Assembly: GCA_035510575.1 (NCBI GenBank)
Contig: DATKGV010000008.1
Location: 68,618 to 132,617, forward strand
Length of the DNA: 64,000 nucleotides
Origin: Minisyncoccota bacterium
GTDB lineage: Bacteria; Patescibacteriota; Minisyncoccia; Phycocordibacterales; UBA9973
Direction: 5' to 3'
The notes beneath the pieces were generated by a model. The model was not told the origin of the DNA. It ran no database searches and saw only the letters and a program-made list of their open reading frames with translations. The first letter of the stretch is position 1. Every line of letters begins with the position of its first letter. The position numbers and the translations under genes are program-made. Positions 46,668 through 63,867 of the stretch are shown in pieces.

Positions 46668-48011
46668 TTGATTTTTAAGTCTTCATCGCGAGGCGGGCTT
46701 TCTTATTTATTAGCGTTAATAGATAAGCAGATGCAAAAAACAACACTAGTGTGGCACACGGAGCAACGAAAAATCTCTGACCTCGTTCCAAGCTCCATCA
46801 ACCCTCGGACTATGAGTCCGAAGCAAATTGAAGACCTCAAGCAGAGTCTTCAAAAGTTCAATCTGGTCGAAATCCCCGTCATCGACACTAATAATAATTT
46901 AATCGCAGGACATCAGCGTCTGATGGTCATGAAGCTCCTCGGGCGTGGCGAGGAGGTTATTGACGTGCGCGTGCCGAGCCGGAAGCTATCCAAAAAAGAA
47001 TACGACGCGTACCTTCTTGCCTCGAACCGAATCCACGGCGACTGGGACTGGGCAAAACTCGCCGAGAACTTTGACCTCGAGCTTCTCCTTGAAAACGGAT
47101 TTGACGATAATGACCTCACCCACATCTGGGACGAGAATCTCACCGTTGAAGATGATGAATTTGATTTAGAAAAAGAACTCGAAAAAATCAAGACGCCGAA
47201 GACGAAATACGGCGACGCATACAAGCTCGGAAATCATTTCCTGTTCTGCGGCGACAGCGGGAATCTGGAGACGGTCAGACACACCGTGCACATCAAGAAC
47301 GTGGCGATGCTCTACTTCGACCCGCCGTACAACATCTCCCTCGACTACGACAAAGGCATCGGCGGCAAAAAACACTACGGTGGGAGTGTTAACGACAGCA
47401 AGCCGGACGATGAGTACAAGGAATTCCTGAAGGATATCATCACTAACGGCCTCCTGATTTCAAACATGGATACCCATGTTTTCGTCTGGTGCGACCAACG
47501 ATACATCGGACTCGTGCAGGAAATCTACGAGGAACTCGGCATCGACAGCAAGCGGGTGTGCCTGTGGATCAAGAACGGCGCGAATCCCACGCCAGGAGTC
47601 GCGTTCAACAAATGCTATGAGCCATGCGTGTACGGCGTGCGTGGCAAGCCGTACCTTTCCGACAAAGCACTCAACCTCACGGAGATTCTGAACAAGGAAA
47701 TCGGCAACGGTAACAAAGCCATCGACGACATGCTCGACATGTTGGATATCTGGCTCGTGAAGAGAGTCACAGGATCAGAGTATCAGCATCCAACGCAGAA
47801 GCCACCGAGCCTTCACGAGAAAGCATTGAGAAGATGCACCAAGCCTGGCGACATCGTTCTCGATCTCTTTGGCGGATCGGGATCAACGCTCATCGCGTGC
47901 GAACAATTGAATCGAAGATGCCACATGGTCGAAAAGGAACCAATATTCTGCGATGTCATCATCAACCGATATGAAAAACTCACCGGCACAAAAGCAATCA
48001 AGTTCAGTTAA
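46668..48011 (+). CDS. ParB-like nuclease domain fused to beta-class N6A/N4C DNA methyltransferase
   Basis: N-terminal ParB/Srx motif (NLIAGHQRLMVMKL); methyltransferase motif IV FDPPYN followed later by motif I (DLFGGSGSTLIACEQLNRRC), i.e. beta-class order. Confidence 0.7.
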   Translation: MIFKSSSRGGLSYLLALIDKQMQKTTLVWHTEQRKISDLVPSSINPRTMSPKQIEDLKQSLQKFNLVEIPVIDTNNNLIAGHQRLMVMKLLGRGEEVIDVRVPSRKLSKKEYDAYLLASNRIHGDWDWAKLAENFDLELLLENGFDDNDLTHIWDENLTVEDDEFDLEKELEKIKTPKTKYGDAYKLGNHFLFCGDSGNLETVRHTVHIKNVAMLYFDPPYNISLDYDKGIGGKKHYGGSVNDSKPDDEYKEFLKDIITNGLLISNMDTHVFVWCDQRYIGLVQEIYEELGIDSKRVCLWIKNGANPTPGVAFNKCYEPCVYGVRGKPYLSDKALNLTEILNKEIGNGNKAIDDMLDMLDIWLVKRVTGSEYQHPTQKPPSLHEKALRRCTKPGDIVLDLFGGSGSTLIACEQLNRRCHMVEKEPIFCDVIINRYEKLTGTKAIKFS

Positions 48012-48759
48012 GCAAGGTCAGGTCTGGCAGCTCGGCAGACACCGGCTGCTTGTCGGCGATGCGCTTGATTCCGAAGGCGTGAAGAAGCTTGTCGGCGCGG
48101 ACAAGATCAATTGCATCCTCACCGATGTGCCATACGGAATATCCTACACTGAGAGCAAAGAAAACTTTGCGAGCGTGAAGGTCAACAAGAAAATCCTGAA
48201 CGACAATATTTCGGATGAAACGCAGTATCAAAAATTCATGTCGGGGTGGATCAAGAATATCCTTCCGCACATGGCGAAGAAAAACAGCATCTACATCTTC
48301 AACTGCGACAAGATGCTGTTTGCGCTCAAGGCTTCGCTTGATGAATGCAAGATATATTTCTCTCAATTGCTGATTTGGGTGAAGAATCAAGCGGTCATCG
48401 GAAGAAAGGATTACCTGCCTCAGCACGAACTCATCGTCTTCGGATGGTTCGGCACGCATACGTTCAGAAGATCGAAAGACAAAAGCGTCCTCTTCTATCC
48501 TCGTCCCACAAAAAGCTCTCTCCACCCGACCATGAAGCCGATACCGCTTCTGCGGAATCTCATTCTCAACAGCACAAGCATCAACGACATCGTGTATGAC
48601 TGCTTCCTCGGTAGCGGTTCGACATTGATCGCGTGCGAGCAGACGCACCGCACCTGCCTCGGCGTCGAGCTTGATACCGAATACTGTCAGACCGTCATGG
48701 ATCGCTTCGAGAAGCTGATGAAAATCAAACCAAAATTATTGCATGAACAAAAACACTGA
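47953..48759 (+). CDS. beta-class DNA methyltransferase (paralog of the C-terminal half of the preceding gene)
   Basis: Motif IV variant ILTDVPYGISY, motif I DCFLGSGSTLIACEQTHRTC, C-terminal EKL(T/M)..K similarity to 46668..48011; overlaps it by 59 nt out of frame. Confidence 0.65.
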   Translation: MSSSTDMKNSPAQKQSSSVKQGQVWQLGRHRLLVGDALDSEGVKKLVGADKINCILTDVPYGISYTESKENFASVKVNKKILNDNISDETQYQKFMSGWIKNILPHMAKKNSIYIFNCDKMLFALKASLDECKIYFSQLLIWVKNQAVIGRKDYLPQHELIVFGWFGTHTFRRSKDKSVLFYPRPTKSSLHPTMKPIPLLRNLILNSTSINDIVYDCFLGSGSTLIACEQTHRTCLGVELDTEYCQTVMDRFEKLMKIKPKLLHEQKH

Positions 48760-49147
48760 AGAAAACAAGAATATGCTCTTGGAACAATTGCGGAAAACGC
48801 CGATCGTCCAGATCGCGTGCGAGAAGCTCGACATTTCCCGAGCCACTTTTTACCGGTGGAAATCCGAAGACGAGGAATTTGCTACGTTAGTTGATCAAGC
48901 AGTGAGTGAAGGACGATCACTCATTAATGATGTTGCAGAATCCCAGCTCATCGGCGCGGTCAAAGACCGGAACTTGGCGGCTATCATGTACTGGCTCAAG
49001 CACCACCATGGAGATTACAAGACCAAGGTGCAGATCGACGGCAGATTGGAAACGATACACGAGCTTTCAGTTGAGCAGAAGGCATTGGTCGAACAGGCAT
49101 TAAAGTTAGCAGGCATCACGCCCGAAGAAAACAATGAAGAATCCTAG
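48743..49147 (+). CDS. terminase small subunit-like HTH protein
   Basis: 134 aa with HTH LDISRATFYRWK and a conserved helical region (IMYWLKHHHGDYKTK), directly upstream of and overlapping the large terminase. Confidence 0.4.
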   Translation: MNKNTEENKNMLLEQLRKTPIVQIACEKLDISRATFYRWKSEDEEFATLVDQAVSEGRSLINDVAESQLIGAVKDRNLAAIMYWLKHHHGDYKTKVQIDGRLETIHELSVEQKALVEQALKLAGITPEENNEES

Positions 49148-50606
49148 CAGTGACATATTGGCGAGCATTGCCAAAGACCGCACCGTCAGGCAGAGCGTTA
49201 CCAGAGAAAGTCATCTTTTCTTTTTTCTCGTGTACTTTCCTCACTATGTGAAGTACGAGGTCGCGCCGTTCCAAGACGAGATATTCGACCTGACTCAAGA
49301 CACTTCAAAGAAATTGGTCTGCATTGTCGCGTTCCGCGGCTCGGCAAAGTCCACGATCGTCACCTTTTCATACACGCTCTGGGCGATCCTCGGGAAGCAA
49401 AACAAGAAATATGTCCTCATCGTCTGCCAGACGAAAGCGCAGGCAAAACAGCATATGATGAACATCCGCTATGAACTGGAAACGAACGATCTCCTCAAGA
49501 GCGACTTGGGACCGTTCCGAGAAGAAAACGATACAGAGTGGGCATCGTCGTCGTTGGTATTTGAGAATGTCGGAGCGAGAATCACGATCGCCTCGCTTGA
49601 GCAAAGCATCCGCGGATTCAAGCACAACCAGTACCGCCCCGATCTCATTATCCTTGACGACATTGAAGACCTGAACTCGACCAAGACGCTCGACAGCAGA
49701 AACAAGACGTTTGACTGGTTCTCTCGGGAAGTTGTTCCGCTCGGAGACATTGATACCAGAATCATATTAGTAGGAAATCTACTCCACGAGGACTCGCTCA
49801 TGATGAAATTGAAAACGAAGATTGAGAAAAGAGAAATGGATGGAGTGTTTAAGTGGTATCCGCTTCTCGATGACGAGGGCAGGTGCCTGTGGCCCGGCAA
49901 GTTTGACAGGCCTGAGAAAATCGAGGCACTGAGACGAAGCGTGGCGAATGAACTGGCGTGGCAGCAGGAATATTTATTGCATATAATTTCGGATTCGACC
50001 CGCGTGATATTCCCCGAGTGGATCCAATACTATGACAATCTGCCGGAAGGAATCGAGCATGATTCGCGGGGCGTGTTCATTGGAGTGGACTTGGCGATCT
50101 CGCAAAAAGAAACGGCTGACTATACCGCAGTCGTCACCGGAGTGCTGCACCAGATCGACCGAGAATTGAAAATGTACATCCTGCCGAATCCGATCAACAA
50201 GCGGATGCCGTATCCGGAAACAGTTAATACGATACGGATGATTGCAAAGAATCTGCCGTACAACATGGAGCCATTGGTGGTGATCGAATCGAACGGCTTT
50301 CAAGAAATTTATGCCGATCAGTTGGCGGGGTCGGGAGTGTTGGTCGAAGGCGTAAAAAATACGACTGACAAGCGGTCGCGCCTTGCCATGACTTCGCATT
50401 ACATACAGACAGGCGTGATCCAATTTCCGAGAAATGGAGCAGACGAGCTTATCAACCAGCTGACGGGATTCGGGATCGAGGGGCATGACGATCTTGCCGA
50501 TGCGTTCGCGATGGCGGTGATACGGTCGCTTGATGTCTTGCAGGACAACAGGGATTTTGACGCGTGGCTAAAATTTGTGGAGGAGAATGGGGGACCTTGG
50601 ATTTGA
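49134..50606 (+). CDS. phage terminase large subunit (ATPase + RNase H-like nuclease)
   Basis: N-terminal P-loop-like FRGSAKSTIV, Walker B LIILDDIEDL, C-terminal nuclease Asp cluster (FIGVDLAISQ...DYTAVVTG...ESNGFQ...HDDLADAFAMAV). Confidence 0.65.
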   Translation: MKNPSSDILASIAKDRTVRQSVTRESHLFFFLVYFPHYVKYEVAPFQDEIFDLTQDTSKKLVCIVAFRGSAKSTIVTFSYTLWAILGKQNKKYVLIVCQTKAQAKQHMMNIRYELETNDLLKSDLGPFREENDTEWASSSLVFENVGARITIASLEQSIRGFKHNQYRPDLIILDDIEDLNSTKTLDSRNKTFDWFSREVVPLGDIDTRIILVGNLLHEDSLMMKLKTKIEKREMDGVFKWYPLLDDEGRCLWPGKFDRPEKIEALRRSVANELAWQQEYLLHIISDSTRVIFPEWIQYYDNLPEGIEHDSRGVFIGVDLAISQKETADYTAVVTGVLHQIDRELKMYILPNPINKRMPYPETVNTIRMIAKNLPYNMEPLVVIESNGFQEIYADQLAGSGVLVEGVKNTTDKRSRLAMTSHYIQTGVIQFPRNGADELINQLTGFGIEGHDDLADAFAMAVIRSLDVLQDNRDFDAWLKFVEENGGPWI

Positions 50607-50611
50607 GCTAC

Positions 50612-53302
50612 TTACGCTTTTGAGAACAGTCGCACAATTTCTTCGAAATTCTTCGCTTTATTTTCTTCCCATTCCTCTTGTTTGATATACAGAGCTTCGT
50701 AGATCATTTTACTTTGCCTGTCATTCACATCCTTACACCACTTTTGCAAACGCTCAAACTTTATTTTGTCGTCCTCATCTTCTCTGCCTTTGGTCTCAAT
50801 GATGAAAACGGTCTTATCATTTTTTTTCACAAAGAAGTCAGGATAGTACGTGGCAATAAAGCCCTCGGAATTTTTATATTCAATTCGCAGAGCATTTGCT
50901 TCTTTGTTTTGGAAGTTTTTTGCATAAGAAATTATATCGTCGCACCGCTCAAGGAAATCGGCAAAAGTGAGCTCGAAATTACTATCGCCAACGATGCGAT
51001 TGAATACGGATTTTTTCGGGATCAAAAAAGATTTGTCATTTACAACGAATGGTCGCGCTTCACTTATCTTAATGTAGTTCTTTATTTCCGTATCACCACC
51101 ATCTTTTACTGTAAGCTCATTGATGGCTTTCTTGAACTCGTCCTTGATCAGCTTAATGTATTCGACTTCGGAGAGGTTCCGTAAGAGATTAAGATCGGAT
51201 AAATTGACAGCTCCCTCAAACATATAATTCTCCACGAAATCACGCACTTTACCGAATAAGATGTCGTAGCATCCGAAAAGTCGGAGCTCTCGCATTATCG
51301 CTTGGGCGAAGAAGCCTATGACGCTTTGATAGTTTGGCTCAATATCGCCAGTGAGAACAGTCGTATGGTGCGTCTTCTCATCTACAACGTCTTTAAACAC
51401 AATTTCGCGCTTCTCTTCCTCGGAAAATATTTTTATTTTTACTCGCTTACTACCAAACATTGAAACGTTAAGCTCTGATAGATTTTTATACTCTCTCTGT
51501 ATACGCGGACTCATGACAGGGATTTCAATATCGAGCTTTTCAATATCTTTTTTTGGGTTGTCCTTGTCCACTTCCACCACCATCGGCGTAATCGGCTTGG
51601 ATCCGCTACCCATCAGTCGCTTTTCAAGAAGTACACCCTCGCCTTTAATTGATTCAACAAAATCCATAAAGGCGGGAGTGCCGATGACACTTACATACTC
51701 ATCAACATCGTCTCTTCCGAAAAACATTCGTCGCAAGCCACGACCAAGCGTCTGTTCTGGCAATATCTTTGAGTCAGAGGCATATGGGCGAAGTCCCACG
51801 ATAGTTGTGACATTTTTCACATCCCATCCTTCTTTGAGCATCATCACAGAAATAATAACTTTGAATGGACTTTCCCAACTGTCGATGTCATTTGCTTGTT
51901 TTCGCAGGATTTCAAGTTCTTCCTTATTTTTTCCAGAGATGGTTTCAGAAATCTCACCACTTTTATTAGTATGAATTGTGAGGACTCCACCTTTTAGATC
52001 AGCGAAGCTCGTCTCAAGATATTGCGCTACTTCATCGCAGTTCTGAGTATCATCAGTCATTATGAACAATATAGATTTCTTACCTACAGGTTTGAGCGTC
52101 TCGTACGACTTCTTCCATTCTTCCACTCCAAGATTTATATAATCCCTGTATTTCTCACTGAACAGTGTGCTCTGGTTCGGCTTGAGTTTGCCACGGCTCG
52201 CTTCGTCCGGGACGACGGGATTTTTGACTATTCTCTGGTGTATTGCCTCAACAAGTGGATAGTCAGAAATCGTCTGTACGAAAATTGAGCCGTCCGTCTT
52301 CTTCGGTGTTGCAGTTACATCGAGTTGGAGCGACAACCCAGTACCTTTTTGTTTGAGGCGGTTGTCTATGTCTTGGATTGATTTGAACCAAGCGAGCTTC
52401 TCGTCGTGGATATGGTGTGCTTCGTCGTTAATGACGATCAACTCGTCTATATCTCGCACAATCATTCCCAAATCAACGGTAGAGTCATTCGTTTTCGTGA
52501 CAGGCTTTTCACCAAGGAAATACTGGGAAGCATCCTCGTCTTCTAGGGTTGCCTCTTTTGTGTCGCCTTCAAACACGCGATGGATATTTGTGAGGAATAT
52601 ATTACCTGTGTCTGAAATACCTCGCAGTGCATCTTGGAGGTGAAGTGTTACTTGAAAATCATCATGCCAGTTCTGTCCTCGATATCCATTATCAGGAAGT
52701 ACAGGATCTTCAAAAAATATGTTCAATCCTTCAAAATCTTTTTTTATTCGTTCAAAAACGATAACATTCGGAGTTATTAAAAGAAAGTTTTTTGCCAGCT
52801 TGGAGTCAGTTTCATAAAGTTTGTGAAAATACGCCCACGCGACGATCAAGCTCATAACTTTTGTCTTACCTGCCCCTGTCGCCATTTTTATCACGAAACG
52901 GAGCCAGTCCTCTGTGAACATTTGTGGAGAGAGTACGCCAGTCGAGTTGTATCTGATGAGATCGTATTTATCCTTTACTTGGGCAACCTCATAAAGCCAG
53001 ACAACTGTCTCCAGCGCTTCGCGCTGGGCGAAGTAGTATCGGAAATTATACGTAGTTCCATCTTTGTCAGCTAAAATATGTTCTTCTTTGAACCACCAGT
53101 TAAGCAATGCTATTGAAGTATCACTTGCTCCCTTGTAATTCTGGTCTCGCCACTCTTTTACTTTCTTTCGTAATTCCGCAACAAGAGGTGGAAGAAGTTT
53201 CTCATATCCTCGCTCGCGCAGATCCTCGGCAGCAGGAAACCACCGGATGCTCGGGTCGAGTATTTCAAATGGGTCTTTGGGAAAATCTTTATGTAGTGCC
53301 AT
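50612..53302 (-). CDS. res: Type III restriction endonuclease Res subunit (SF2 helicase + PD-ExK nuclease)
   Basis: Walker A TGAGKTKVMS, DEAH box VINDEAHH, helicase motif VI, C-terminal PD..ExK (YYPDFFV...IIETKG); lies immediately downstream of the mod gene on the same strand. Confidence 0.7.
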   Translation of the reverse strand: MALHKDFPKDPFEILDPSIRWFPAAEDLRERGYEKLLPPLVAELRKKVKEWRDQNYKGASDTSIALLNWWFKEEHILADKDGTTYNFRYYFAQREALETVVWLYEVAQVKDKYDLIRYNSTGVLSPQMFTEDWLRFVIKMATGAGKTKVMSLIVAWAYFHKLYETDSKLAKNFLLITPNVIVFERIKKDFEGLNIFFEDPVLPDNGYRGQNWHDDFQVTLHLQDALRGISDTGNIFLTNIHRVFEGDTKEATLEDEDASQYFLGEKPVTKTNDSTVDLGMIVRDIDELIVINDEAHHIHDEKLAWFKSIQDIDNRLKQKGTGLSLQLDVTATPKKTDGSIFVQTISDYPLVEAIHQRIVKNPVVPDEASRGKLKPNQSTLFSEKYRDYINLGVEEWKKSYETLKPVGKKSILFIMTDDTQNCDEVAQYLETSFADLKGGVLTIHTNKSGEISETISGKNKEELEILRKQANDIDSWESPFKVIISVMMLKEGWDVKNVTTIVGLRPYASDSKILPEQTLGRGLRRMFFGRDDVDEYVSVIGTPAFMDFVESIKGEGVLLEKRLMGSGSKPITPMVVEVDKDNPKKDIEKLDIEIPVMSPRIQREYKNLSELNVSMFGSKRVKIKIFSEEEKREIVFKDVVDEKTHHTTVLTGDIEPNYQSVIGFFAQAIMRELRLFGCYDILFGKVRDFVENYMFEGAVNLSDLNLLRNLSEVEYIKLIKDEFKKAINELTVKDGGDTEIKNYIKISEARPFVVNDKSFLIPKKSVFNRIVGDSNFELTFADFLERCDDIISYAKNFQNKEANALRIEYKNSEGFIATYYPDFFVKKNDKTVFIIETKGREDEDDKIKFERLQKWCKDVNDRQSKMIYEALYIKQEEWEENKAKNFEEIVRLFSKA

Positions 53303-53303
53303 A

Positions 53304-55562
53304 TTAAATTTTCACCTCGATTACTCGAGTGGTATCGTTACCAAAAATGTCTACGACCTTTACTGCAATGGTGTACGCTCCTTTTGGCATTTCTTTTTTT
53401 GCAGAAATGAGTTCAAGGTTCCTGTTCTTCTTAGTGCGAAAACTCTGCCATTCGTTATCAAAAATATAGTCTCCCGTCCATTCTTCTTTTTCTTCGCTGT
53501 CTTCTGTGAACTTTACGATTTCCTTTCGGCTTGTGAAATCAAAATCAACCGCCCAATAGTCAATCCAGTCACTCCACTTTTTTGTAAGCTGTTCAGGAGG
53601 ATTCACCATTCCATTCTTGTCGGTCGTGACTTTCCAAATCTGCCCTTTATCTACAACAATTTTAGTTTTACCTTTAGATCCGTTGATTTCCTCGATGACT
53701 GTATCGAGCTCGTCTTGTGAGTAGAAAACTGAGAAATCAGAAAGTTCGAGAGCAAGTTCTTTGATGCTTCCTTTGCCTGTTACAATAGGTTTGACCTCAA
53801 TGAAAGCAACATCGTAGAACTTGATTTGACCTTTTTCGACGGCGCGTTTGTCGAACACCTCGCGCGGGATGATTTTGAAAGATATATCCACGCCTTGTTC
53901 TTTGTACTCTTGAAAATCTATACCCATCTCGTAGTCGAAACCGAGTACATCCACTTTTGTAATCTGCTTTGATTTGCACTCTTTCACGATATCTTTTATG
54001 AGCTTATGTGAGACTGGATAATTTATAGGACCAACAGCAACGAGACGATCTCGCTTCTTACCGACAATATTCACGAACGATTCGACAGGCTCGGCTTTGT
54101 AAGCGGCGATGATGAGGCGAACAAACTCTTTTTCTTTTCGCTCTGCCTGTTTTGCTTTTTCTTCTGCTCGCAGATTATCGTTTATAGCAATATAGTTTTC
54201 ACGCTCGTATCTGCCAACGTTCAAAATTTCGAATGCTCGGAAATTCTTGCCCTCTTTTTTGAGTTCACGCTGTACTCCAATCATTCGCTTGCGAGAAGTA
54301 TGGACACCGAACTTGCCCAAATCGGATCCAATCCATTTTCTGCCGGACTTTTCTGCAACAGCCATTGTTGTACCCGAACCACAGAAAAAATCAGCGACAA
54401 GATTTCCTTCATCCGAAGACGCTTTGATCAAACGCTCTATGAGACTTTCGGGTTTCTGGGTTGGGTAATCAAGATTTTCTTTACTTATTGCTTGAATGTT
54501 GCTCGTAGTTTTATCTACAAATAAACTCTGTGCGGGAGTACCCTTGTTATCTTCTAAGTAATACTTGTAATGAATTGACTTATTTTTTGTAATAACAATT
54601 AAGTTATTTTTTATTGCTTCGTTTATTCTGTCTTGAGACCATCTCCAATGGTTTCCCTTGGGTGGAGCAATCAATTCACCATTGAAATATCTTGCCTCTC
54701 CAGATCCAGAAGCTGTCAGGGTGACCAATCTGTATTTTCTGCCGTCTCCGTCATCCAACTTGAAAAATGTATTTATGTAGTTTTCATCGGCTGGAGTATA
54801 TTGAGTATTAAAAATATAATTATCTGATTTGGTGTAGAACAAAATTGTGTCGTGTATATTTGCATACTTCGTATCAACATGCCCGTGCGGATTGCTTCTT
54901 TGCCAAATAATTTCATTCCTAAAATTATCTTTCCCAAAAATCTCATCCAAGACCAAACGCATATAACTATTTACTCTCCAATCACAATGCACATAAATAC
55001 TTCCGTCATCTGCGAGTAAGTCGCGCATCAATTTCAATCGCTCATAAATCATTGCGACAAAACTATCCGCACCCTTTCCCCAAGTATCACGATATGCGAT
55101 TTCTTCAATCACTGAAGGTTTTTTAGTAAACTGCTCCTCACCAATTTCTATATCCATCGAAAAATCCGCACCGACATCAAACGGAGGGTCTATGTAAATC
55201 AATTTAAGTCCGCCCTGTGCTTCAATTTCTTTTCGAAGCGGTCCGTTTTTGAGTGACGAAAGAATCAGTTTGTTATCGCCCCAGATGAGCTTGTTCGTCC
55301 AGCCCGTAACCTGTCTGCCAGTAGTATCAAAAAGTGAATCTTGCGCTCCGATCTTGCCTTCACTTCGAGGCTCATCGATTTGCTCGATTGCCTGAAACGG
55401 GAGGACAACATTTGTCACTTCGTTCGTTTTTCCATTCCAAAGAAGCTCGACCTCGCGGTCGTCTTTGAATAGTAAAAAACGATACTTGTCAGGGAGAGGT
55501 TTTCCTGCTTCCAAGTATTTTATTACATCTCTTTTTTCGTTATCTGAAAGATTTGATGACAT
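53304..55562 (-). CDS. mod: Type III R-M Mod subunit (N6-adenine DNA methyltransferase, beta class)
   Basis: Motif IV IYIDPPFDVGADF then motif I FFCGSGTTMAVAEKSGRKWIGSDL; 752 aa; 1-nt spacing to res. Confidence 0.7.
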   Translation of the reverse strand: MSSNLSDNEKRDVIKYLEAGKPLPDKYRFLLFKDDREVELLWNGKTNEVTNVVLPFQAIEQIDEPRSEGKIGAQDSLFDTTGRQVTGWTNKLIWGDNKLILSSLKNGPLRKEIEAQGGLKLIYIDPPFDVGADFSMDIEIGEEQFTKKPSVIEEIAYRDTWGKGADSFVAMIYERLKLMRDLLADDGSIYVHCDWRVNSYMRLVLDEIFGKDNFRNEIIWQRSNPHGHVDTKYANIHDTILFYTKSDNYIFNTQYTPADENYINTFFKLDDGDGRKYRLVTLTASGSGEARYFNGELIAPPKGNHWRWSQDRINEAIKNNLIVITKNKSIHYKYYLEDNKGTPAQSLFVDKTTSNIQAISKENLDYPTQKPESLIERLIKASSDEGNLVADFFCGSGTTMAVAEKSGRKWIGSDLGKFGVHTSRKRMIGVQRELKKEGKNFRAFEILNVGRYERENYIAINDNLRAEEKAKQAERKEKEFVRLIIAAYKAEPVESFVNIVGKKRDRLVAVGPINYPVSHKLIKDIVKECKSKQITKVDVLGFDYEMGIDFQEYKEQGVDISFKIIPREVFDKRAVEKGQIKFYDVAFIEVKPIVTGKGSIKELALELSDFSVFYSQDELDTVIEEINGSKGKTKIVVDKGQIWKVTTDKNGMVNPPEQLTKKWSDWIDYWAVDFDFTSRKEIVKFTEDSEEKEEWTGDYIFDNEWQSFRTKKNRNLELISAKKEMPKGAYTIAVKVVDIFGNDTTRVIEVKI

Positions 55563-56019: not shown

Positions 56020-56895
56020 ATGACAAAACACAAGTTCACATTTGCAGAATTACCAATAGGTCAGGTCGCCCGAGATCCGAATCAACCGAGAAAAGACTTC
56101 GGAGCCGAAGGCGAGAAAAACAAGTTAAAATTATCAATCAAGAACTACGGAATCGAGGAGCCGATTAAAGTAAGCGAAATATCAGACAAGCGCTTTATTA
56201 TTATTGACGGACATCGTCGCTTCATATGTGCCCAGAAGCTTGGCATGAAGACGGTGCCTTGTCGCATCTATCCCAAGATGACGGACGGCGAGTTCGAGAC
56301 GAGACGTTACGAAATGCAAAACAATCGTCGTGCATGGAATCCGCTTGAACGCTCTGAAGCATTGGAGCGAATCAAGTACTCGTATGGGTTCAAGAACAAC
56401 CACGAGCTTGCCGATTACCTTGGCATGAGCAGATCATCTGTACAACTCGCAATGCAAATGAGAAAGCAGAGAATATCGAACTTAACAATGATGGAGAGAT
56501 ATAATGTACCGAAAAGCGTCCGTATGTCGATGCTCAACATCTTCAAGAAGCTCCGTAAGATCAAGAAACTTGAAGTCGATGACATCATCGAAGTCATATT
56601 CGAGAAGATCGACAAGAAAGTGATTACAAAATCGCTCGACATCCGCAAGATTGGCAAAGCGTTCATGCAAGCGACGATTAATGAGGATGAGCTGTACCAG
56701 TTTTTGACGAAGCCCGATATGACAGCGAATGAGCTCGAACAGCGTACGCGCCAGACAGGATTCGCGCTCATGTGTGGAGATCTCATCAAGAAGATTACTC
56801 AGAAAAAAGAGAATGGAACATCGTATACCAAGAACGAAAAAGCCTCTCTCGTTCAACTCCAAGCCCTTATCAGGAAAACTATAAAAGTCGCATAA
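56020..56895 (+). CDS. ParB-like N-terminal domain protein
   Basis: ParB/Srx core FIIIDGHRRFICAQKLG with upstream EPIKVS segment; 291 aa. Confidence 0.6.
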   Translation: MTKHKFTFAELPIGQVARDPNQPRKDFGAEGEKNKLKLSIKNYGIEEPIKVSEISDKRFIIIDGHRRFICAQKLGMKTVPCRIYPKMTDGEFETRRYEMQNNRRAWNPLERSEALERIKYSYGFKNNHELADYLGMSRSSVQLAMQMRKQRISNLTMMERYNVPKSVRMSMLNIFKKLRKIKKLEVDDIIEVIFEKIDKKVITKSLDIRKIGKAFMQATINEDELYQFLTKPDMTANELEQRTRQTGFALMCGDLIKKITQKKENGTSYTKNEKASLVQLQALIRKTIKVA

Positions 56896-56899
56896 TACT

Positions 56900-58288
56900 A
56901 TGGCAATATCTGTACCCACAAACAAAAAAGCCGTAGCGTATTATCGTCATTCTGCAAAAGATAAACAAGAAAATTCAGTTGCCATCCAACAAGGACATAC
57001 TCAAGCATTTGCCGCAACTCACAAAATAGAGATTATTCACGAAGAAGCAGATGAGGGTGAAAGCGGACTATCGGCCGATCGACCCGGATATCAGCGATTA
57101 TTCGATGAATGGATAACAAACCCCCTCGCCCCCGCCTTTGACTACGTCTTCGTATACGATGTCTCCCGTTGGGGACGATTTCAGGACCAAGACGAGGCGG
57201 CGCATTATGAATATCTTTGTAAGCAGCACGGTAAGAAAGTTGTTTACGTTTCGCAGGGCTTTCCTAAAGAAGATGAACAACTCATCTCCACACTTCAAAC
57301 ATCAATCGGTCGATACATGGCCGCCGAGTACTCGCGCCAGTTAAGCGGTAAAGTCTGGCACGGATGCGTCAAAGTTTCAGAGCAAGGATTTTCTGCCGGA
57401 GGACAGCCTCCATATGGGATGAGCCGATTACTTCTTGGCGAAGACAAGAAGCCAGTAAAGAAACTCAAACGAGGTCAATGGAAATCCATATCAAACGAGC
57501 GCGTCACATTCGCCCCTGCCGACGACGGAACAGCGGAGATAGTCAAAGACATGTATTCAATGCTCGTCGAGAAATGGGAATCGCCCCAGTCGATCGCCGA
57601 CATATTGAACGAGCGAGGCATTCCGACAGTGCAGGGTAAGAAATGGAAATCAAGCGGGGTGCTCAATATCCTCACTAACGAGGTATATACAGGAACCCGA
57701 ATTTACAACAAGACTTGGGGTCGATTGAAGCAAAAACATCGTGCTAATCCACGAAGCGAGTGGGTTATTCAGCCAAATGCGTTTGAAGGAATCATATCGT
57801 CTGAAATATTCAACGCCGCGCAAGACCGTCTGTACTGGCTCATGCCAAGCAAATGGCAAAAGGGCGCATACACGGTGCGAAAAGCGCGGCGTGGACTGCA
57901 AGCCGAAATCACGACCTTGCTCATGAGCAAAGGAATGGAAATCGACGACGCGGACATGGCGGTACGGAAATTGCCCATGGCGATCGGCGCACGGTTCACC
58001 GTCGAGGGTGTAGCCAACTGGTGCTTCACAGTGAAAGAATATATGAAGAATTATGACTACATCATCGGCGTAAGCGTCGCAACAGATCGGCATGATCCTG
58101 TTGATAGGTTCTTCTGGATTCCCATCAGCACATTTGACGGCACGGACTATGTGGTATTCTCGGAGAAAGATGACTGCTATCACACTTCGAGTATTCCGAG
58201 TGGCGAGGTTCAGAAAAGGATTCTGTCCTTGTTGCCTGATCTTAAATTATTTAGCGATTTACCTATAATAATTCCGCCAACAGAATAA
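56900..58288 (+). CDS. large serine recombinase (resolvase N-terminal catalytic domain + recombinase domain)
   Basis: N-terminal KAVAYYRHSAKDKQ (catalytic Ser context), ...VFVYDVSRWGR, recombinase domain (PYGMSRLLLGEDKKP); 462 aa. Confidence 0.7.
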   Translation: MAISVPTNKKAVAYYRHSAKDKQENSVAIQQGHTQAFAATHKIEIIHEEADEGESGLSADRPGYQRLFDEWITNPLAPAFDYVFVYDVSRWGRFQDQDEAAHYEYLCKQHGKKVVYVSQGFPKEDEQLISTLQTSIGRYMAAEYSRQLSGKVWHGCVKVSEQGFSAGGQPPYGMSRLLLGEDKKPVKKLKRGQWKSISNERVTFAPADDGTAEIVKDMYSMLVEKWESPQSIADILNERGIPTVQGKKWKSSGVLNILTNEVYTGTRIYNKTWGRLKQKHRANPRSEWVIQPNAFEGIISSEIFNAAQDRLYWLMPSKWQKGAYTVRKARRGLQAEITTLLMSKGMEIDDADMAVRKLPMAIGARFTVEGVANWCFTVKEYMKNYDYIIGVSVATDRHDPVDRFFWIPISTFDGTDYVVFSEKDDCYHTSSIPSGEVQKRILSLLPDLKLFSDLPIIIPPTE

Positions 58289-58344: not shown

Positions 58345-58668
58345 GTGGACGACATAGAAGCGGTCATTAAGACCAGCCAGCATTTCAAATATGAGGACGA
58401 AGAATCAGATGTAAAATACGCCTTCAATCGTATTTCTGATTTGCCGGAATCTAAATCTAAGTTGAAACGAGCGATTAAAGATCGGATTCGTTTACTTTGC
58501 GCGTCGTATATCTCGCTCGCGTCATTCATTCCTGACGAGGATGCTGAATATTTGATCGGCTTGCACGGCGAGCAGAAGAAAAAACGATCAATCAAAATAA
58601 TGATGCGGATGATGAAAGAGATGGATAAGCTTGAAAAAGAAATCCGTAATTTTGATCCGTTTTCTTAA
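58345..58668 (+). CDS. hypothetical protein
   Basis: 107-aa ORF between recombinase and DGR target. Confidence 0.3.
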   Translation: MDDIEAVIKTSQHFKYEDEESDVKYAFNRISDLPESKSKLKRAIKDRIRLLCASYISLASFIPDEDAEYLIGLHGEQKKKRSIKIMMRMMKEMDKLEKEIRNFDPFS

Positions 58669-58765
58669 TTATAAAAAATTGCGCGAACTCGCTTCGCGAG
58701 TAAATGCCAAAGGGTCAAAGAATCCAAGAGCCAAAGAATCAGAAAAATACAAAGAGGCAATAGGT

Positions 58766-60607
58766 CTAAGATTCAGACTTGCGGAGACGGAAAGCGAACT
58801 CACTGTCCGGATGCCACTCGAGGCCGGGCGTCGCCCAATAGTTGTCCAGCCACAAACCGTCACCGTCGCGCACGAGGCGGAAGACGAACGGGTAGCCGCC
58901 AGAGTCAGCGATTTGTTTCATTCCAATACGCACCCATTCATTTAGAGGTTGATTCCTGTATTTAAGGCGATAGTTAGGGCCAGTATCAGGAGGACACAAT
59001 TCCAAGCCGAGCGTTTGTGCGCGTTCGTAAATTTGGTCAGTGGTAGCACTTGTTTTGAAACCAAGGTCAGCAACAGTAAGGCGGATAAGTGTTGCTTCTT
59101 CACGCTTTTTACCTGGAATGAAGTCACGATTCTTCATCATAGATTTTGCGTAGTCGGAAATATTGATGTGGGCTGCTTCCATTTCAGCAATCAATTGTTC
59201 GGCCGTCTTTCCACCTATCTCGACATTTTCTCTGCGAATTTTCTTGTCTGGGAACGAGGTGTATACATGCTCAAGACCTTCTGGCAATCTTTGGAAGATG
59301 CCTGGCTCAAGCTGTCCAACATACGCCTTTGTATCTTTTGTTATCTGGCTTGGAACGTGAGCAATTTCTTCCTTAGTACATGCAAAAATAACAAGCATGT
59401 CTTCCTCTGTATTTCTGCCAGCGCGAAGCTCGGCAATACGCGGATCGGTTTGGTATCCGAAACCTTCGATGGACGAGTTAATTTCATAGAGAAATACAAG
59501 ATCATCTTTGGTAAATGGTTCTTCTTGTTCGCGCTTTTGATCAAGAGCAGTCAGTATTTTCATGTCTCCACTTTTCTTTCGGTACGCATCTGCTTCGGTT
59601 CCGAAATCTTGGAGTTTTTCATCAAGTGCTTCCTGCATGATTGGTTCTACGCCTTGGTGCGGAAGAATACCACGCACTTCGCCAATTCTATTGTCACCCT
59701 CCATACGGATCGCAAGACGAGGTTGGGTTGGTTCGCCGTTTGAATCATTCGTGTAATAAACATAAAAGTCGCCATTCTCTATTTGTGTTTCTGCTGTCGA
59801 TTTACCGGCAGTACACCAACCAGTTCCTTTTCCTTCGAGTGATTCAAAAAGTTGCTCGGCGTCACCGCTTTGTCCCTGTTGGTATTTTTTCCATTCACCT
59901 TTGACCTCCTCACGGTTCTCCATTGAGGCAGCAAGAGATTTTGAGATGAGTTCAGCGTATAAGCTCGGAAACTTTTGAGAAAAAGCTTCGCGCACCTCTG
60001 GTTCTTTGAGATTTTTGTTATCTTCTTTTACTTTGAAATATATGTCGGCAATTTGCGCGAGTGGTTCGCGATAGATATCGGGATATGGTGCAACAGTACT
60101 ATCGGTACGCTTTTTGAACTCGCCACGCTCTTTGTCGAATTGGGAAAGTTTGGTGATATTTTTCCAAACAAAGTATTTGAACCATGCAGGATACATGGCA
60201 TCGTCTGAAGTAAGGTACTCCATCCACGCATTAAGCGATGCTCGCTGGTCTTCGATGGCAACATCCATCATTTGTTCACGGACATTGTCAGGGATTTCCT
60301 CTACTGCTTGTCCACGCTCGCGAGCGATGCGCTTTTGCAGTTCAAAATATGATTCAGGAAAATTCTCCTTTTTTATAATGAATGCGTCATATATTTTGTC
60401 GCGAAACATTTCGAGATTGCGTTCACGTTTCTTTTCATCAGGATTGAGAAAAACATTCTCCAAACGATCCATATAGGCTTCGATACGCTCGGAAGGATCA
60501 TTCGGCATTTTTTCGCCAGTCTGTCGCTCTTCTCGCACAACGGCTCGATTTACCTCGGGAGAAGTTTGAAGTTCCGGGCTTTTCATGTGGAGCGGGTGCT
60601 TTTCCAT
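58766..60607 (-). CDS. DGR target protein: 613-aa cytoplasmic protein with C-terminal variable region (CLec-like ...GLWLDNYWATPGLEWHPDSEFAFRLR)
   Basis: The last ~42 codons, immediately before the stop, form the VR matching the TR at 60902-61029; no signal peptide or TM; the N-terminal ~570 aa have no recognised domain. Confidence 0.7.
   Translation of the reverse strand: MEKHPLHMKSPELQTSPEVNRAVVREERQTGEKMPNDPSERIEAYMDRLENVFLNPDEKKRERNLEMFRDKIYDAFIIKKENFPESYFELQKRIARERGQAVEEIPDNVREQMMDVAIEDQRASLNAWMEYLTSDDAMYPAWFKYFVWKNITKLSQFDKERGEFKKRTDSTVAPYPDIYREPLAQIADIYFKVKEDNKNLKEPEVREAFSQKFPSLYAELISKSLAASMENREEVKGEWKKYQQGQSGDAEQLFESLEGKGTGWCTAGKSTAETQIENGDFYVYYTNDSNGEPTQPRLAIRMEGDNRIGEVRGILPHQGVEPIMQEALDEKLQDFGTEADAYRKKSGDMKILTALDQKREQEEPFTKDDLVFLYEINSSIEGFGYQTDPRIAELRAGRNTEEDMLVIFACTKEEIAHVPSQITKDTKAYVGQLEPGIFQRLPEGLEHVYTSFPDKKIRRENVEIGGKTAEQLIAEMEAAHINISDYAKSMMKNRDFIPGKKREEATLIRLTVADLGFKTSATTDQIYERAQTLGLELCPPDTGPNYRLKYRNQPLNEWVRIGMKQIADSGGYPFVFRLVRDGDGLWLDNYWATPGLEWHPDSEFAFRLRKSES
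58782..58909 (-). repeat. DGR variable repeat (VR)
   Basis: Its reverse complement aligns over 128 nt with TR (60902-61029). There are 21 mismatches, all at TR adenine positions (e.g. TR aac/VR ttc, aac/cgc, gaa/gtg, aat/tat, aaa/acg), and the flanks are identical. Confidence 0.8.
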
Positions 60608-60895
60608 ATATGGTTCGCATTATAGCATAAATTACTGCGAAATAAAGAGGTTTTTGGTATACTATTTTCAGATTGGTTTCATTGAACGGCTACGGTTTTT
60701 CAAGACCAATTTACTTCGTGTAGATTGAGAGCGCGAACGGTTATGGCTTTTCGCGGAGGATGTACATAGAGGTCTTTAAAAAGAAAAAACTTGGTGCGAC
60801 GCGCTGGTTGATTTTCGATCACGCATAACAATACAGCACGGCTTCTGGCACATTTATGTGCGCCTAAGTCGGCGGTGACATGGATGGCGTGCCGC

Positions 60896-61029
60896 ACAAA
60901 CGCTGACTCTGACGGCAACCCGAACGTCTTCAACCTCGAACGCAACGATGACGGTTTGTGGCTGAACAACAATTGGGCGAAACCCGACAACGAGTGGAAT
61001 CCGGACAATAAGTTCGCTTTCCGTCTCCG
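60896..61029 (+). repeat. DGR template repeat (TR)
   Basis: Adenine-rich (many AAC/AAT codons) copy of VR, lying between the target gene and avd/RT; it is followed at 61044-61075 by the hairpin ccgcgac...gtcgcgg and a T-run. Confidence 0.8.
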
Positions 61030-61057
61030 AAACTATTTTCTTTTCCGCGACCTCATG

Positions 61058-61465
61058 TTACATGTCGCGGTTTTTCTTTTCAGGGTTGGCAAGATTCTTC
61101 TTCCAGCCACCAAACATCTTGCCGACTTCTTCGAGTTTCAATGCCACGTTCTCGCAGTGAGCGTTTGAAATAAGCTTGCCCTCCCATGCAACAGAGACAA
61201 GAAACTTTAGTGTGTCCAACACCAAAATGCATTCAGTAATTTTTTCCTCTTTCTTCTCTTTTTCGATAAAATATGCGATGTATGACAATTCAAGCAGATC
61301 GAGAAACTTGTTCTCAATCCGTGAGCCGATTGTATAGCGTGCGCCTTTAGCAATATGCGGAACAATATTAACCCAAATCAAATACCCCTCTTTGATCTTG
61401 TTGAGGATCGAAGCGTTGTTGGTGTGCGAAAGTCGGGGGGGGGGGAGATTTGTCGCTCGGTTCAT
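61058..61465 (-). CDS. avd: Avd-like accessory variability determinant (four-helix-bundle protein); 5' end uncertain
   Basis: IVPHIAKGARYTIGSRIENKFLDLLELSYIAYF...ITECILVLDTLKFLVSVAWEGKLISNAHCENVALKLEEVGKMFGGWKKN matches the helix and length pattern of Bordetella phage bAvd; the annotated N-terminal 10 aa cross a C11 homopolymer. Confidence 0.6.
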   Translation of the reverse strand: MNRATNLPPPRLSHTNNASILNKIKEGYLIWVNIVPHIAKGARYTIGSRIENKFLDLLELSYIAYFIEKEKKEEKITECILVLDTLKFLVSVAWEGKLISNAHCENVALKLEEVGKMFGGWKKNLANPEKKNRDM

Positions 61466-62449
61466 ATCTACAATAATATCATTTCTGTGGAAAACTTACT
61501 CGTCGCATGGCGAGAATTCCTTCATGGAAAACGGAGCCGTAAAGACGTTGCCCAATTTTCAGTTCATCTGACCGATAATATACTTGCCCTCCATCGCGAA
61601 CTCGTCGATAAGACCTACCATCACGGTCTGTACAAAGCTTTTCGTATCAACGATCCCAAACCGCGTGATATTCATAAGGCGAGTGTTCGCGATCGGTTAC
61701 TTCACCATGCTATTTATAGGATTTTGTATCCCTACTTTGATCCTAAGTTTATTTTTGATTCGTATTCATGTCGGCGTGGTAAAGGCACGCACCGCGCGCT
61801 TGATAGATTTCGAGACTATGCCCGCAAAGTTTCTAAAAATCATACTCAGACAGTGTGGGTCTTGAAATGCGATATCAGAAAGTTTTTTGCAAACATTGAT
61901 CACACAATTTTAGAAGATATTTTGAAGCGTCGCATGGGAGACGAAGATGTCATTCAACTTTTTCGAGAAATTGTTGGCAGTTTTAATACCAAAGACAAGG
62001 ATGGTGTAGGATTACCTCTCGGTAATCTCACTAGCCAGCTTTTGGTAAATATTTATATGAACGAGTTTGATCATTTTCTCAAACGAGATTTGAAAGTTGA
62101 ATATTGCGTTAGGTACGCGGACGATTTTGTTATTCTGCACACAGACAAAAAATATTTAGAAAACGTCTTGCCAAAAATATCTGCATTTTTAGAAACAAGA
62201 CTCAAGCTATCCCTTCATCCTGATAAGGTGTTTATAAAAACATTCGCCTCGGGCGTAGACTTTCTTGGTTGGGTACATTTTCCACATCATCGTGTGCCGA
62301 GGACATCCACGAAAAAGAGAATGTTCAGAAATTTAAATCAAAACTCAAAAAAGGAATCACTAAGTTCCTACGCAGGGCTTCTGAGTCATGGCGATACACA
62401 TGAATTACGAGAGACAATATTTAAGAAGTATTCTGATAAGAAAATCTGA
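61355..62449 (+). CDS. DGR reverse transcriptase; 5' end uncertain (probably begins after the G11 tract, near 61455)
   Basis: RT motifs: ENLLVAWREFLHGKR (start of DGR RT core), motif 4 GLPLGNLTSQLLVNIY with the DGR-specific SQ, motif 5 VRYADDFVIL (YADD), ~330-aa core size. Confidence 0.8.
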   Translation: MRNNINPNQIPLFDLVEDRSVVGVRKSGGGEICRSVHIYNNIISVENLLVAWREFLHGKRSRKDVAQFSVHLTDNILALHRELVDKTYHHGLYKAFRINDPKPRDIHKASVRDRLLHHAIYRILYPYFDPKFIFDSYSCRRGKGTHRALDRFRDYARKVSKNHTQTVWVLKCDIRKFFANIDHTILEDILKRRMGDEDVIQLFREIVGSFNTKDKDGVGLPLGNLTSQLLVNIYMNEFDHFLKRDLKVEYCVRYADDFVILHTDKKYLENVLPKISAFLETRLKLSLHPDKVFIKTFASGVDFLGWVHFPHHRVPRTSTKKRMFRNLNQNSKKESLSSYAGLLSHGDTHELRETIFKKYSDKKI

Positions 62450-62523: not shown

Positions 62524-63867
62524 ATGAACCATACACAAACACAAGCGCCATTAGGGACTACGGCCAAAGTAGTAGTCCCCACAAAGGTAAAATACTGCCT
62601 TTACGCAAGAAAAAGTACGGAAAGTGAGGAACGCCAAGTGCTGTCCATAGACAGCCAGATCAAAGAGATGCTCCAATTGGCGGAGCGCGAGGGTCTTGAG
62701 ATCGTGACCATGAAGCGCGAGAGTCACAGCGCGAAAGAGACCGGCCAGCGTCCAGTCTTCAACGAGATCGTGGATGAAATCAAACAGGGCAAGTTTAACG
62801 GCATCCTGACATGGGCACCGGATCGAATCAGCAGAAACGCGGGCGACCTCGGGAAGATCGTCGACCTGATGGATGCCGGAAAACTGCATCAGATACGCAC
62901 CTTCGGGCAGACGTTCGGTAACAATCCGAACGAGAAATTCCTACTGATGATTCTCGGCTCGCAGGCGAAACTCGAAAACGACAACCGAGGCATCAACGTG
63001 AAGCGCGGACTGCGGACAAGAGTGGAGATGGGATTGTGGCCAGGCATGGCACCGCTTGGGTACCTGAATCAGAAGATGCTCGATCGTAAATGCCAGATTG
63101 CAATAGATCCTGACCGCGCGCCGATCGTCCGGAAAATGTTCGAGAAAGTAGCCCACGAGGGATGGAGCGGACGAAAGGTGTACAACTGGCTTCGGTTCGA
63201 CCTGAACTTCCATACGAGAGGACACAAGCCACTAACGCTCTCCGGTGTGTATCGAATATTCAATATGCCAATTTACTACGGGCCATTCGAGTACCCGAGA
63301 GACAGCGGCAACTGGTACGACGGAAAACATGAGCCGATCATCACCAAGGAATTATATGAGAAAGCGCAGGAACAGCTGAAGCGAGATAAGATCGTCAGAG
63401 AGAATCGGGAGTTCGCTTTTACAAAATTATTTACCTGCGGCATGTGCGGCTCGGGAATCACGGCGCAGGAGAAATATAAGGAGCTGAAAGACACGACGAC
63501 CGCCAAGTACGTCTACTACTCCTGCTCGAAAGCGAGAGATCGTAATTGCAAGAACAAGTACATCCGCGAGGAAGAACTGATCGAGGAACTTTTCAAAGTC
63601 ATTGACAAAGTGAGCATCAACGAACTGGGAATGCGAATGAAGCTCGAGGAAGAAATCAAGCGATTCAATCGGCTACAGCGACTTGCAACCAAAGGCACGC
63701 CGAAATATTCAATCAACGAGGACGATGTGAATACAAGAGAGTATGCAAAATACGTCCTGCGCGAGGGCACGCCGCTTGAGAAGCGCGAGCTGATGGGACA
63801 TCTGCGAAGCAGACTGGTGCTCAAGGACAAGAGAATTACGCTCCTTCAGGAAAGAGAGGAAAAATAA
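62524..63867 (+). CDS. large serine recombinase with C-terminal zinc-ribbon
   Basis: N-terminal YCLYARKSTESEERQVLSIDSQ catalytic region, ...GILTWAPDRISRN, recombinase domain, CGMCGSGI...YYSCSKARDRNC zinc ribbon, coiled-coil tail. Confidence 0.7.
   Translation: MNHTQTQAPLGTTAKVVVPTKVKYCLYARKSTESEERQVLSIDSQIKEMLQLAEREGLEIVTMKRESHSAKETGQRPVFNEIVDEIKQGKFNGILTWAPDRISRNAGDLGKIVDLMDAGKLHQIRTFGQTFGNNPNEKFLLMILGSQAKLENDNRGINVKRGLRTRVEMGLWPGMAPLGYLNQKMLDRKCQIAIDPDRAPIVRKMFEKVAHEGWSGRKVYNWLRFDLNFHTRGHKPLTLSGVYRIFNMPIYYGPFEYPRDSGNWYDGKHEPIITKELYEKAQEQLKRDKIVRENREFAFTKLFTCGMCGSGITAQEKYKELKDTTTAKYVYYSCSKARDRNCKNKYIREEELIEELFKVIDKVSINELGMRMKLEEEIKRFNRLQRLATKGTPKYSINEDDVNTREYAKYVLREGTPLEKRELMGHLRSRLVLKDKRITLLQEREEK

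Follow-up and report, generated by a model that had tools for sequence, protein, structure and literature searches.

The window analysed here is a 64,000-nt stretch of contig DATKGV010000008.1 from the Minisyncoccota bacterium assembly GCA_035510575.1, and it harbors a complete diversity-generating retroelement (DGR) arranged around a minus-strand open reading frame (ORF; 58766-60607). The element comprises a reverse transcriptase (RT) gene, an avd gene and a 135-nt pair of template repeat (TR) and variable repeat (VR). The ORF encodes the 613-aa DGR target protein, full-length homologues of which (77-100% identical) occur in metagenome-assembled genomes of the candidate phyla radiation (CPR). 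The two repeats (58779-58913 and 60898-61032) form an inverted repeat of 135 nt with 84% complementarity. Read on the plus strand, all 22 mismatches between them fall at adenines of the 60898-61032 copy (ten A>G, seven A>T, and five A>C), indicating that this copy is the TR and that the copy within the gene is the VR. The TR lies on the plus strand, which is also that of the RT gene, and contains 40 adenines and 12 AAY codons, a repertoire that would in principle allow ~1e22 protein variants. The VR, on the minus strand, covers codons 565-610, about the last 45 codons of the target ORF, and no second VR was found within the window. The Avd accessory gene (61058-61465, minus strand) encodes a 135-aa protein that matches PF22296 (bAvd; E = 4.9e-12, 46.7 bits, above the cut-off of 40) and, below the curated cut-off of 80 bits, the NCBIfam model DivGenRetAVD (E = 1.9e-16, 60.3 bits). 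The RT gene (61355-62449, plus strand; 364 aa as listed) matches RVT_1 (E = 8.8e-24), and its translation includes LGNLTSQ and YADD, hallmark motifs of DGR reverse transcriptases. The initial annotation had named this ORF as the target of a DGR, an assignment that the 22 adenine-directed mismatches confirm together with the RT and Avd genes.

Several finer features accompany these core components. Counted from its first listed ATG, the RT ORF on the plus strand overlaps the avd ORF on the minus strand by 111 nt in antiparallel orientation (61355-61465), and the true RT start probably lies downstream of this overlap. In the TR/VR alignment, the 3' end of the VR holds a 17-nt stretch that is invariant (TTCGCTTTCCGTCTCCG; 58782-58798, minus strand) and beyond which the two repeats diverge; following the Bordetella phage model outlined in Wu 2018, this stretch may function as the initiation of mutagenic homing (IMH) site. 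No significant GC-rich cruciform or hairpin adjoins the VR (z = -0.82), and a GC-rich inverted repeat downstream of the VR has been described for only 34% of DGRs (Wu 2018). A consensus scan placed a terminator-like hairpin with a T-run 3' of the target gene (58682-58698, minus strand).

Comparison with close relatives revealed that variation is concentrated in the VR. Among 41 public homologues at least 90% identical to the target over residues 1-560, sampled across assemblies rather than within a population, mean entropy reached 2.01 bits at the 22 residues with a TR adenine at codon position 1 or 2, as against 0.11 bits at the remaining VR residues and 0.145 bits over the scaffold, which is strongly conserved among homologues. 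Several homologues, each 96.6% identical to the target over residues 1-560, carry unrelated VRs, and another (P0002) is identical to it over the same residues and differs, in the displayed part of the C-terminus, at residues 602-603 only. Because close homologues vary almost exclusively at TR-adenine codons, the element appears to be active, the entropy pattern being the expected signature of ongoing mutagenic retrohoming.

It is very unlikely, by contrast, that the locus is a decaying or inactive remnant with fossil repeats and a target that is no longer diversified or functional. Orphan family members without a DGR do exist, one of which retains just a 27-aa RT fragment, and the protein of another is identical in at least 66 contigs, both of which count in favour of such a reading. 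However, all DGR parts are intact in the window, every TR/VR mismatch lies at an adenine, relatives ~97% identical over residues 1-560 bear different VRs, and the scaffold is under strong conservation. The RT fragment (L001, 9988-10068) lies directly downstream of an otherwise DGR-less family member with a 23S_rRNA_IVP (Avd-like) gene nearby, suggesting DGR decay beside a retained target. The recurrent orphan (P0030; L007, 7001-8842) is 91% identical to the target, has no TR, RT or Avd within 7 kb, and its identical copies come from many samples; 10 of the 13 listed sequences with DGR-type variable VRs are singletons. This orphan could serve as a natural control for a fixed versus a diversifying VR. 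In addition, two contigs encoding an identical target protein (L015, 12.0 kb; L016, 11.5 kb) break ~325 bp upstream of the target start, close to the position of the TR, which lies ~290 bp upstream of that start in the window. TR/VR repeats apparently fragment short-read assemblies, and DGR linkage is therefore probably undercounted in metagenomes.

The target protein itself bears no recognizable mark of Sec-dependent export or membrane insertion. Its highest 19-residue Kyte-Doolittle mean is 0.83, compared with the usual transmembrane threshold of 1.6, and residues 1-30 have a mean hydropathy of -1.26 and lack a hydrophobic signal core; no signal peptide, lipobox or transmembrane helix was detected in the 613 aa by this simple hydropathy test, which is not equivalent to SignalP. 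The protein is acidic: its net charge is -24, and charged residues make up 32% of it (E 11.6%, K 7.5%, D 6.5%, R 6.7%). These results agree with the initial annotation, which had described a protein with a highly charged N-terminal region and without signal peptide or transmembrane segment; neither a cleavable signal peptide nor a tail-fibre or Mtd-like homology of the N-terminal region, which it had named as contrary evidence, emerged from hydropathy, PHROG or Foldseek analyses. The absence of a Sec signal and of transmembrane segments implies that the target works in the cytoplasm or after non-Sec delivery, and a cytoplasmic location is presumed here. Scans of the target and of diverse relatives against Pfam, NCBIfam, PHROGs and PADLOC returned no match, searches of the PDB by sequence and by profile returned nothing, and Pfam indicated no cell-wall-anchoring, immunoglobulin (Ig) or adhesin domains. 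A reading of IGGKT (aa 464-468) as a Walker A motif was rejected, as the upstream glycine is missing from the sequence.

The VR closes a C-type-lectin-like domain of ~155 aa (about aa 455-613; 58769-59245, minus strand), predicted to bind ligands. Residues ~455-613 fold on their own in the structural model, with a predicted local distance difference test (pLDDT) score of 94.6 and a predicted template modelling score (pTM) of 0.90, and the variable residues nearly alternate along two predicted strands. The top Foldseek matches in the PDB are almost all carbohydrate-recognition domains (CRDs) of C-type lectins, including mincle, DCAR2, BDCA2 and DCIR, the best of them with E = 0.035, a Foldseek prob value of 0.85 and template modelling scores of 0.36-0.46. 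No Pfam lectin or formylglycine-generating enzyme (FGE) model matched the domain, and neither Mtd nor TvpA was among the top 50 Foldseek matches listed for it. The modelled domain is consistent with the divergent C-type-lectin fold of DGR variable proteins. The initial annotation had proposed looking for a C-terminal C-type-lectin or FGE fold, and the structure offers lectin CRDs as its nearest PDB neighbours, although with an E value of 0.035, template modelling scores under 0.5 and no Pfam counterpart. Its further proposal, that only the final ~45 aa form the lectin-like tip, needs revision, as the domain begins near aa 455 and also exists as a stand-alone protein: L011 (6010-6570), a 53-kb IMG/VR contig, encodes a 186-aa protein consisting of the lectin-like domain only, 45% identical to aa 448-613 of the target. 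Several small ORFs beside this stand-alone gene are Cys/His-rich. A likeness of aa 463-531 to ribosomal protein L22 (PDB 9h91_S, E = 0.028, 69 residues) had no Pfam support and was treated as chance; ribosomal-protein links have been noted in CPR DGRs (Wu 2018).

The rest of the target is a constant N-terminal module (aa 1-455; 59243-60607, minus strand) that is strongly conserved and folded in the AlphaFold2 model. This model, built from 139 homologues, is globular alpha/beta (pLDDT 86.3, pTM 0.73), and its confidence indicates that the charged N-terminal part is a folded module rather than low-complexity sequence. Foldseek found no PDB match to the full model at E <= 1e-3. The module defines a large family: a search with residues 1-480 among 1.84 billion cluster representatives recovered 2028 clusters (counted at 50% identity) at E <= 1e-3, including 1076 at E <= 1e-30. 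The 120 closest proteins are 77-100% identical over their full length, those with a named source being labelled as CPR lineages, and a scan of one genome per species identified at least 566 genomes with a relative, nearly all of them with CPR titles. The family is probably among the commonest CPR DGR target families. Within it, the module (aa ~1-410/480) is fused to varied C-termini, including the DGR-type lectin tail (…FVFRLRK), leucine-rich repeat (LRR)-like repeats, helical repeats and longer extensions. No N-terminal hydrophobic segment is present in 381 of the 388 family proteins scanned, two of the seven exceptions are probably mis-called starts, and C-terminal transmembrane tails occur in two; signal-peptide-like N-termini were seen in 5 of 150 family representatives. 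On these counts, the module occurs mostly in proteins without an export signal. Two of the signal-bearing relatives, P0257 (L177, 8001-9806) and P0509 (L178, 2306-4915), have signal-peptide or lipoprotein-like N-termini and sit in loci resembling non-CPR diderm genomes, with sigma-54 activators and resistance-nodulation-division (RND) efflux genes; P0257 and P0254, which belongs to the 90% cluster of P0509, end in LRR-like repeats, not in a DGR tip.

This module probably has at its core a relative of PcfJ, a domain found in phages and conjugative plasmids. The PcfJ-like core (aa ~248-335; 59603-59866, minus strand) carries the motifs GTGWCTAG, GDFYVYY, PRLAIRM and IGEVRG. In a Foldseek search of BFVD, a database of predicted viral structures, the top match is an uncharacterised 1494-aa phage protein (E = 3.6e-6, 397 columns), and five of the top ten matches are named "PcfJ-like protein" (E = 4e-3 to 0.3). 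Against a comparison set of PcfJ from plasmid pCF10 and 80 viral relatives, the core motifs proved co-linear with the target: EG..L.HCVG of PcfJ corresponds to EGKGTGWCTAG, G.T.I.FIR to GDFYVYYT, P.YT.E to PRLAIRM, and I.Q.RG to IGEVRG. Alignment of target aa 248-335 with the PcfJ core by hhalign gave a score of 23.4 (P = 0.002), compared with 12.2±2.6 in column-shuffle controls (n = 150), none of which reached 23.4. This signal was obtained only with a profile enriched in viral sequences; hhalign was uninformative when PcfJ was represented by one sequence or by a shallow alignment from Enterococcus. The statement in the initial annotation that the N-terminal region has no recognizable domain accordingly stands for sequence libraries, none of which recorded a match, but not for the structural model, in which the module is confidently folded around a probably PcfJ-like core; remote homology searches, which it had recommended, gave suggestive rather than conclusive evidence of this core by hhalign and Foldseek, whereas the Pfam model PF14284 did not match. 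As for the surroundings of PcfJ, the pCF10 gene adjoins an AcrIIA9-family gene, and a PcfJ relative is present on at least 572 viral contigs. Wu 2018 independently described such a motif, located ahead of the VR, in CPR DGR targets (category g).

The genomic setting combines a cellular chromosome with signs of mobility. The window is CPR chromosome, with genes for DNA polymerase I, Fpg and two tRNAs, and the DGR is flanked by one large serine recombinase gene at 62524-63867 (plus strand; Resolvase, Recombinase and Zn_ribbon_recom) and, on the other side, by a second at 56900-58288 (plus strand; Resolvase and Recombinase), which adjoins a ParB-like gene with a helix-turn-helix (HTH) domain (56020-56895, plus strand; ParB_N, E = 9e-14; Phage_CI_repr HTH, E = 2.6e-6). 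A 3.7-kb cassette comprising target, TR, avd and RT (58704-62401) was delimited by a blastn comparison with L006, a 92%-identical relative (86.9% nucleotide identity over 3698 nt), where the cassette occupies a different chromosomal site with unrelated flanks and an identical inverted spacing of 1984 nt. There it lies among cell-envelope genes, next to a different serine recombinase. A recombinase also adjoins the cassette in L006, L010 and L012, and more distant cassettes flanked by serine recombinases are found on IMG/VR contigs. In the lineage of the window, the target gene runs opposite to TR-avd-RT, whereas it is co-oriented with them in relatives on viral contigs (L012, 7864-9915; L010); both layouts recur among 80 species loci, with a serine recombinase adjacent in several.

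DGR linkage was assessed in 32 species loci whose target homologue is flanked on either side by 3 kb or more. A TR with adenine-biased mismatches was present in 21, RT and Avd in 18, and neither in 11, and the orphan homologues sit between housekeeping genes such as those for elongation factor P (EF-P), MnmA, transketolase and ribosomal protein L21. The initial annotation had placed the target within a phage- or plasmid-like element, which is in keeping with the adjoining serine recombinases, the cassette at another site and the relatives on IMG/VR contigs, but does not extend to the 11 DGR-less loci among housekeeping genes. An LRR-type family member adjoins genes for an archaeo-eukaryotic primase (AEP) and Fic. 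A neighbour-gene search revealed no conserved partner beyond RT, Avd and recombinase, and no NACHT/STAND or MoxR NTPase is indicated, the target having neither an NTPase domain nor a PADLOC match and the family no conserved partner gene.

Other features of the window lie apart from the cassette. Three N6/N4 DNA methylase genes (46668-48011, 47953-48759 and 53304-55562) accompany a type III restriction Res subunit gene (50612-53302), and G+C content is 0.49 at 46-50 kb, compared with 0.30-0.45 over most of the window; the region 46668-55562 looks like a restriction-modification island adjoining the DGR cassette. A 739-aa protein encoded at 39947-42166 (DUF6829, E = 1.1e-67; DUF1152, E = 3.6e-7) has no connection with the DGR. 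Between the target and the 56900-58288 recombinase, on the strand opposite to the target, a 107-aa ORF (58345-58668) has a weak match to the PHROG "portal protein" (E = 5.7e-4); it is also present in L015 and L016, contigs of the same genome, and lies outside the cassette common to L006.

These surroundings bear on the possibility that the target is a phage protein, either receptor-binding or packaged in the virion and injected, and that the cassette belongs to a CPR prophage in which the DGR would switch host range or counter host defence. Cassettes of the family do occur on IMG/VR contigs, and L012 carries a ParB-methylase fusion and a terminase-like gene (GpA_ATPase, E = 7.8e-6). PcfJ relatives are common on viral contigs, the recombinases and the ParB/CI-like gene flank the cassette, and Foldseek gave a weak match to a "structural protein" of phage PA5oct (E = 0.11). 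However, the target has no PHROG match, tblastn of the N-terminal module against 50,697 phage records found nothing, and Foldseek returned no tail-fibre fold for this module, the model being globular alpha/beta and not fibrous. Of the three flanking ORFs scanned, encoding the ParB-like protein, the recombinase and the 107-aa product with its weak portal match, none is convincingly structural, the unit common to L006 is the 3.7-kb cassette only, and many homologues lie between housekeeping genes. Phage receptor binding or injection is consequently considered improbable. The check proposed in the initial annotation, for homologous DGR targets in CPR phage genomes, yielded related cassettes on IMG/VR contigs and no match in the phage records.

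A more serious alternative, and the prevailing reading of CPR DGRs, is that the target is a surface or secreted adhesin, exported by a non-classical route such as a type IV pilus, an apparatus like a type IV secretion system, lysis or vesicles, with a tip that binds changing receptors on host cells. The tip is C-type-lectin-like, as in Mtd and TvpA, reviews place CPR DGR targets in host attachment, and some family members combine signal peptides with LRR-like repeats. In addition, 4 of 86 loci have, no more than a few kb from the target, a gene for a large VirD4/TraG-like P-loop ATPase (L048, 7282-10071; L062; L075; L055), which bears on possible non-Sec delivery; this association is too rare to be called. 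Against an adhesin stand the lack of signal peptide, lipobox or transmembrane segment in the target and in ~98% of family members scanned, the absence of cell-wall-anchoring and Ig/adhesin domains, and the resemblance of the module to a phage and conjugative-plasmid domain that occurs in proteins without known export signal. The rarity of the secretion-ATPase association also counts against it, and this reading is regarded as rather unlikely.

Taken together, these analyses lead us to favour, with moderate confidence, a typical CPR DGR whose target is a two-part binder that is not exported through Sec, in which an invariable PcfJ-like module is joined to a tip tuned by the DGR, and which may serve in conflicts of mobile elements or symbionts with their hosts. 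By the Bordetella model, the RT would act with Avd on the TR transcript to make a cDNA with errors specific to adenines, and this cDNA would replace the VR; 22 codons within the last 45 residues of the target are in this way re-randomised. The DGR would thereby supply binding diversity to an architecture of constant module and exchangeable binder, in which the hypervariable lectin-like tip may select a changing ligand while the PcfJ-like module may perform a conserved job on or with that ligand. The target would act in its own cytoplasm or after non-Sec delivery. The likeliest setting would be the conflict of mobile elements, or of the episymbiont, with hosts, since PcfJ and members of the family are both associated with mobile elements, which makes such a role likelier than classical surface adhesion. 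Paul and colleagues reportedly proposed roles in attachment, defence and regulation in 2017.

Several observations weigh against this two-part intracellular or non-Sec-delivered binder. The relation to PcfJ has an hhalign probability of only 13%, the Pfam PF14284 model matches none of 75 family members (the target and 74 diverse relatives) even at E values up to 1-10, and extending the hhalign region to aa 100-345 gives no gain in score. PcfJ is itself without known function, no functional study of it having been found in the literature. The similarity of the tip to C-type lectins is below usual significance limits (E = 0.035, template modelling score < 0.5). Localisation was judged by hydropathy alone, which leaves room for non-classical export, and the signal peptides carried by 5 of 150 family representatives imply that the module can also work outside the cytoplasm. 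Roughly one third of the homologues (11 of the 32 well-flanked loci) lie among housekeeping genes without a DGR, a setting that fits a cellular role as well as a mobile-element role. The target has no PADLOC match, and the search of neighbouring genes offered no conserved partner other than RT, Avd and recombinase.

A bolder version of the two-part binder, speculative and distinctly unlikely at present, is that the PcfJ-like module and its exchangeable binder, be it the DGR-tuned lectin tip, LRR-like repeats or helical repeats, form a widespread programmable effector or adaptor of CPR and mobile elements, acting within the cell or after injection. Such a protein would resemble an "intracellular antibody", the tip capturing changing host, phage or defence proteins and the module neutralising or marking them. 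If this were true, the PcfJ domain of phages and conjugative plasmids would gain its first function, and if the module does act inside cells, CPR DGRs would tune intracellular recognition rather than adhesion. Experimental handles are provided by the well-predicted two-part structure, the PcfJ-linked constant module and the orphan copies with fixed VRs.

Among known systems, the element is closest to the DGRs of CPR/Patescibacteria (clade 2 of Roux 2021; the "CPR set" of Wu 2018), with which it shares the host lineage and a single C-terminal VR. [quoted passage not shown] The target likewise lacks a signal peptide, transmembrane segment or standard domain, as is common in CPR DGRs (Roux 2021; Wu 2018), and has a PcfJ-like element upstream of the VR as in category g of Wu 2018, the families being matched by description only. 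Signal-less CPR targets, PcfJ-like ones included, have already been reported (Wu 2018; Roux 2021) and are the rule in CPR, so that the "unusual use" of a DGR suggested by the initial annotation is not supported. Nothing essential distinguishes the present element from CPR DGRs, the inverted target gene being one of two layouts found among relatives.

More distant comparisons delimit the resemblance. The DGR of Bordetella phage BPP-1 shares adenine-specific TR-to-VR mutagenesis, Avd and RT, an AAY-rich TR and, going by the structural model of the present target, a VR at the C-terminal end of a C-type-lectin-type domain, as in the phage target Mtd. However, Mtd is the trimeric tip of a phage tail fibre, whereas the N-terminal 455 aa of the present target have no tail-fibre homology, and no significant GC-rich cruciform follows the VR here. 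With PcfJ (PF14284; Enterococcus pCF10 and phage relatives), the target shares co-linear core motifs, the lack of a signal peptide and an association with mobile elements, but where PcfJ has the His of its "HC" pair the target has Trp, and the CPR module is ~300 aa larger. We know of no PcfJ proteins that carry C-type-lectin or DGR tips. A further parallel comes from multicellular bacteria, for which Dore et al. 2024 proposed that cellular DGR targets act in conflict systems as diversified intracellular "antigen sensors"; these, however, are associated with NACHT/STAND NTPases or MoxR ternary systems, none of which is present here.

Collectively, the target follows the usual, already reported CPR pattern, and the class is not novel; the locus refines that published pattern and does not overturn current knowledge. 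Roux 2021 stated that whether CPR targets are genuinely non-membrane-bound "remains to be established", and the locus offers a clean, complete and apparently active example for this question. To these earlier descriptions the present analysis adds a view of the whole family, the boundaries of the domains, a PcfJ test with shuffled controls and a comparison of orphan with DGR-linked copies.

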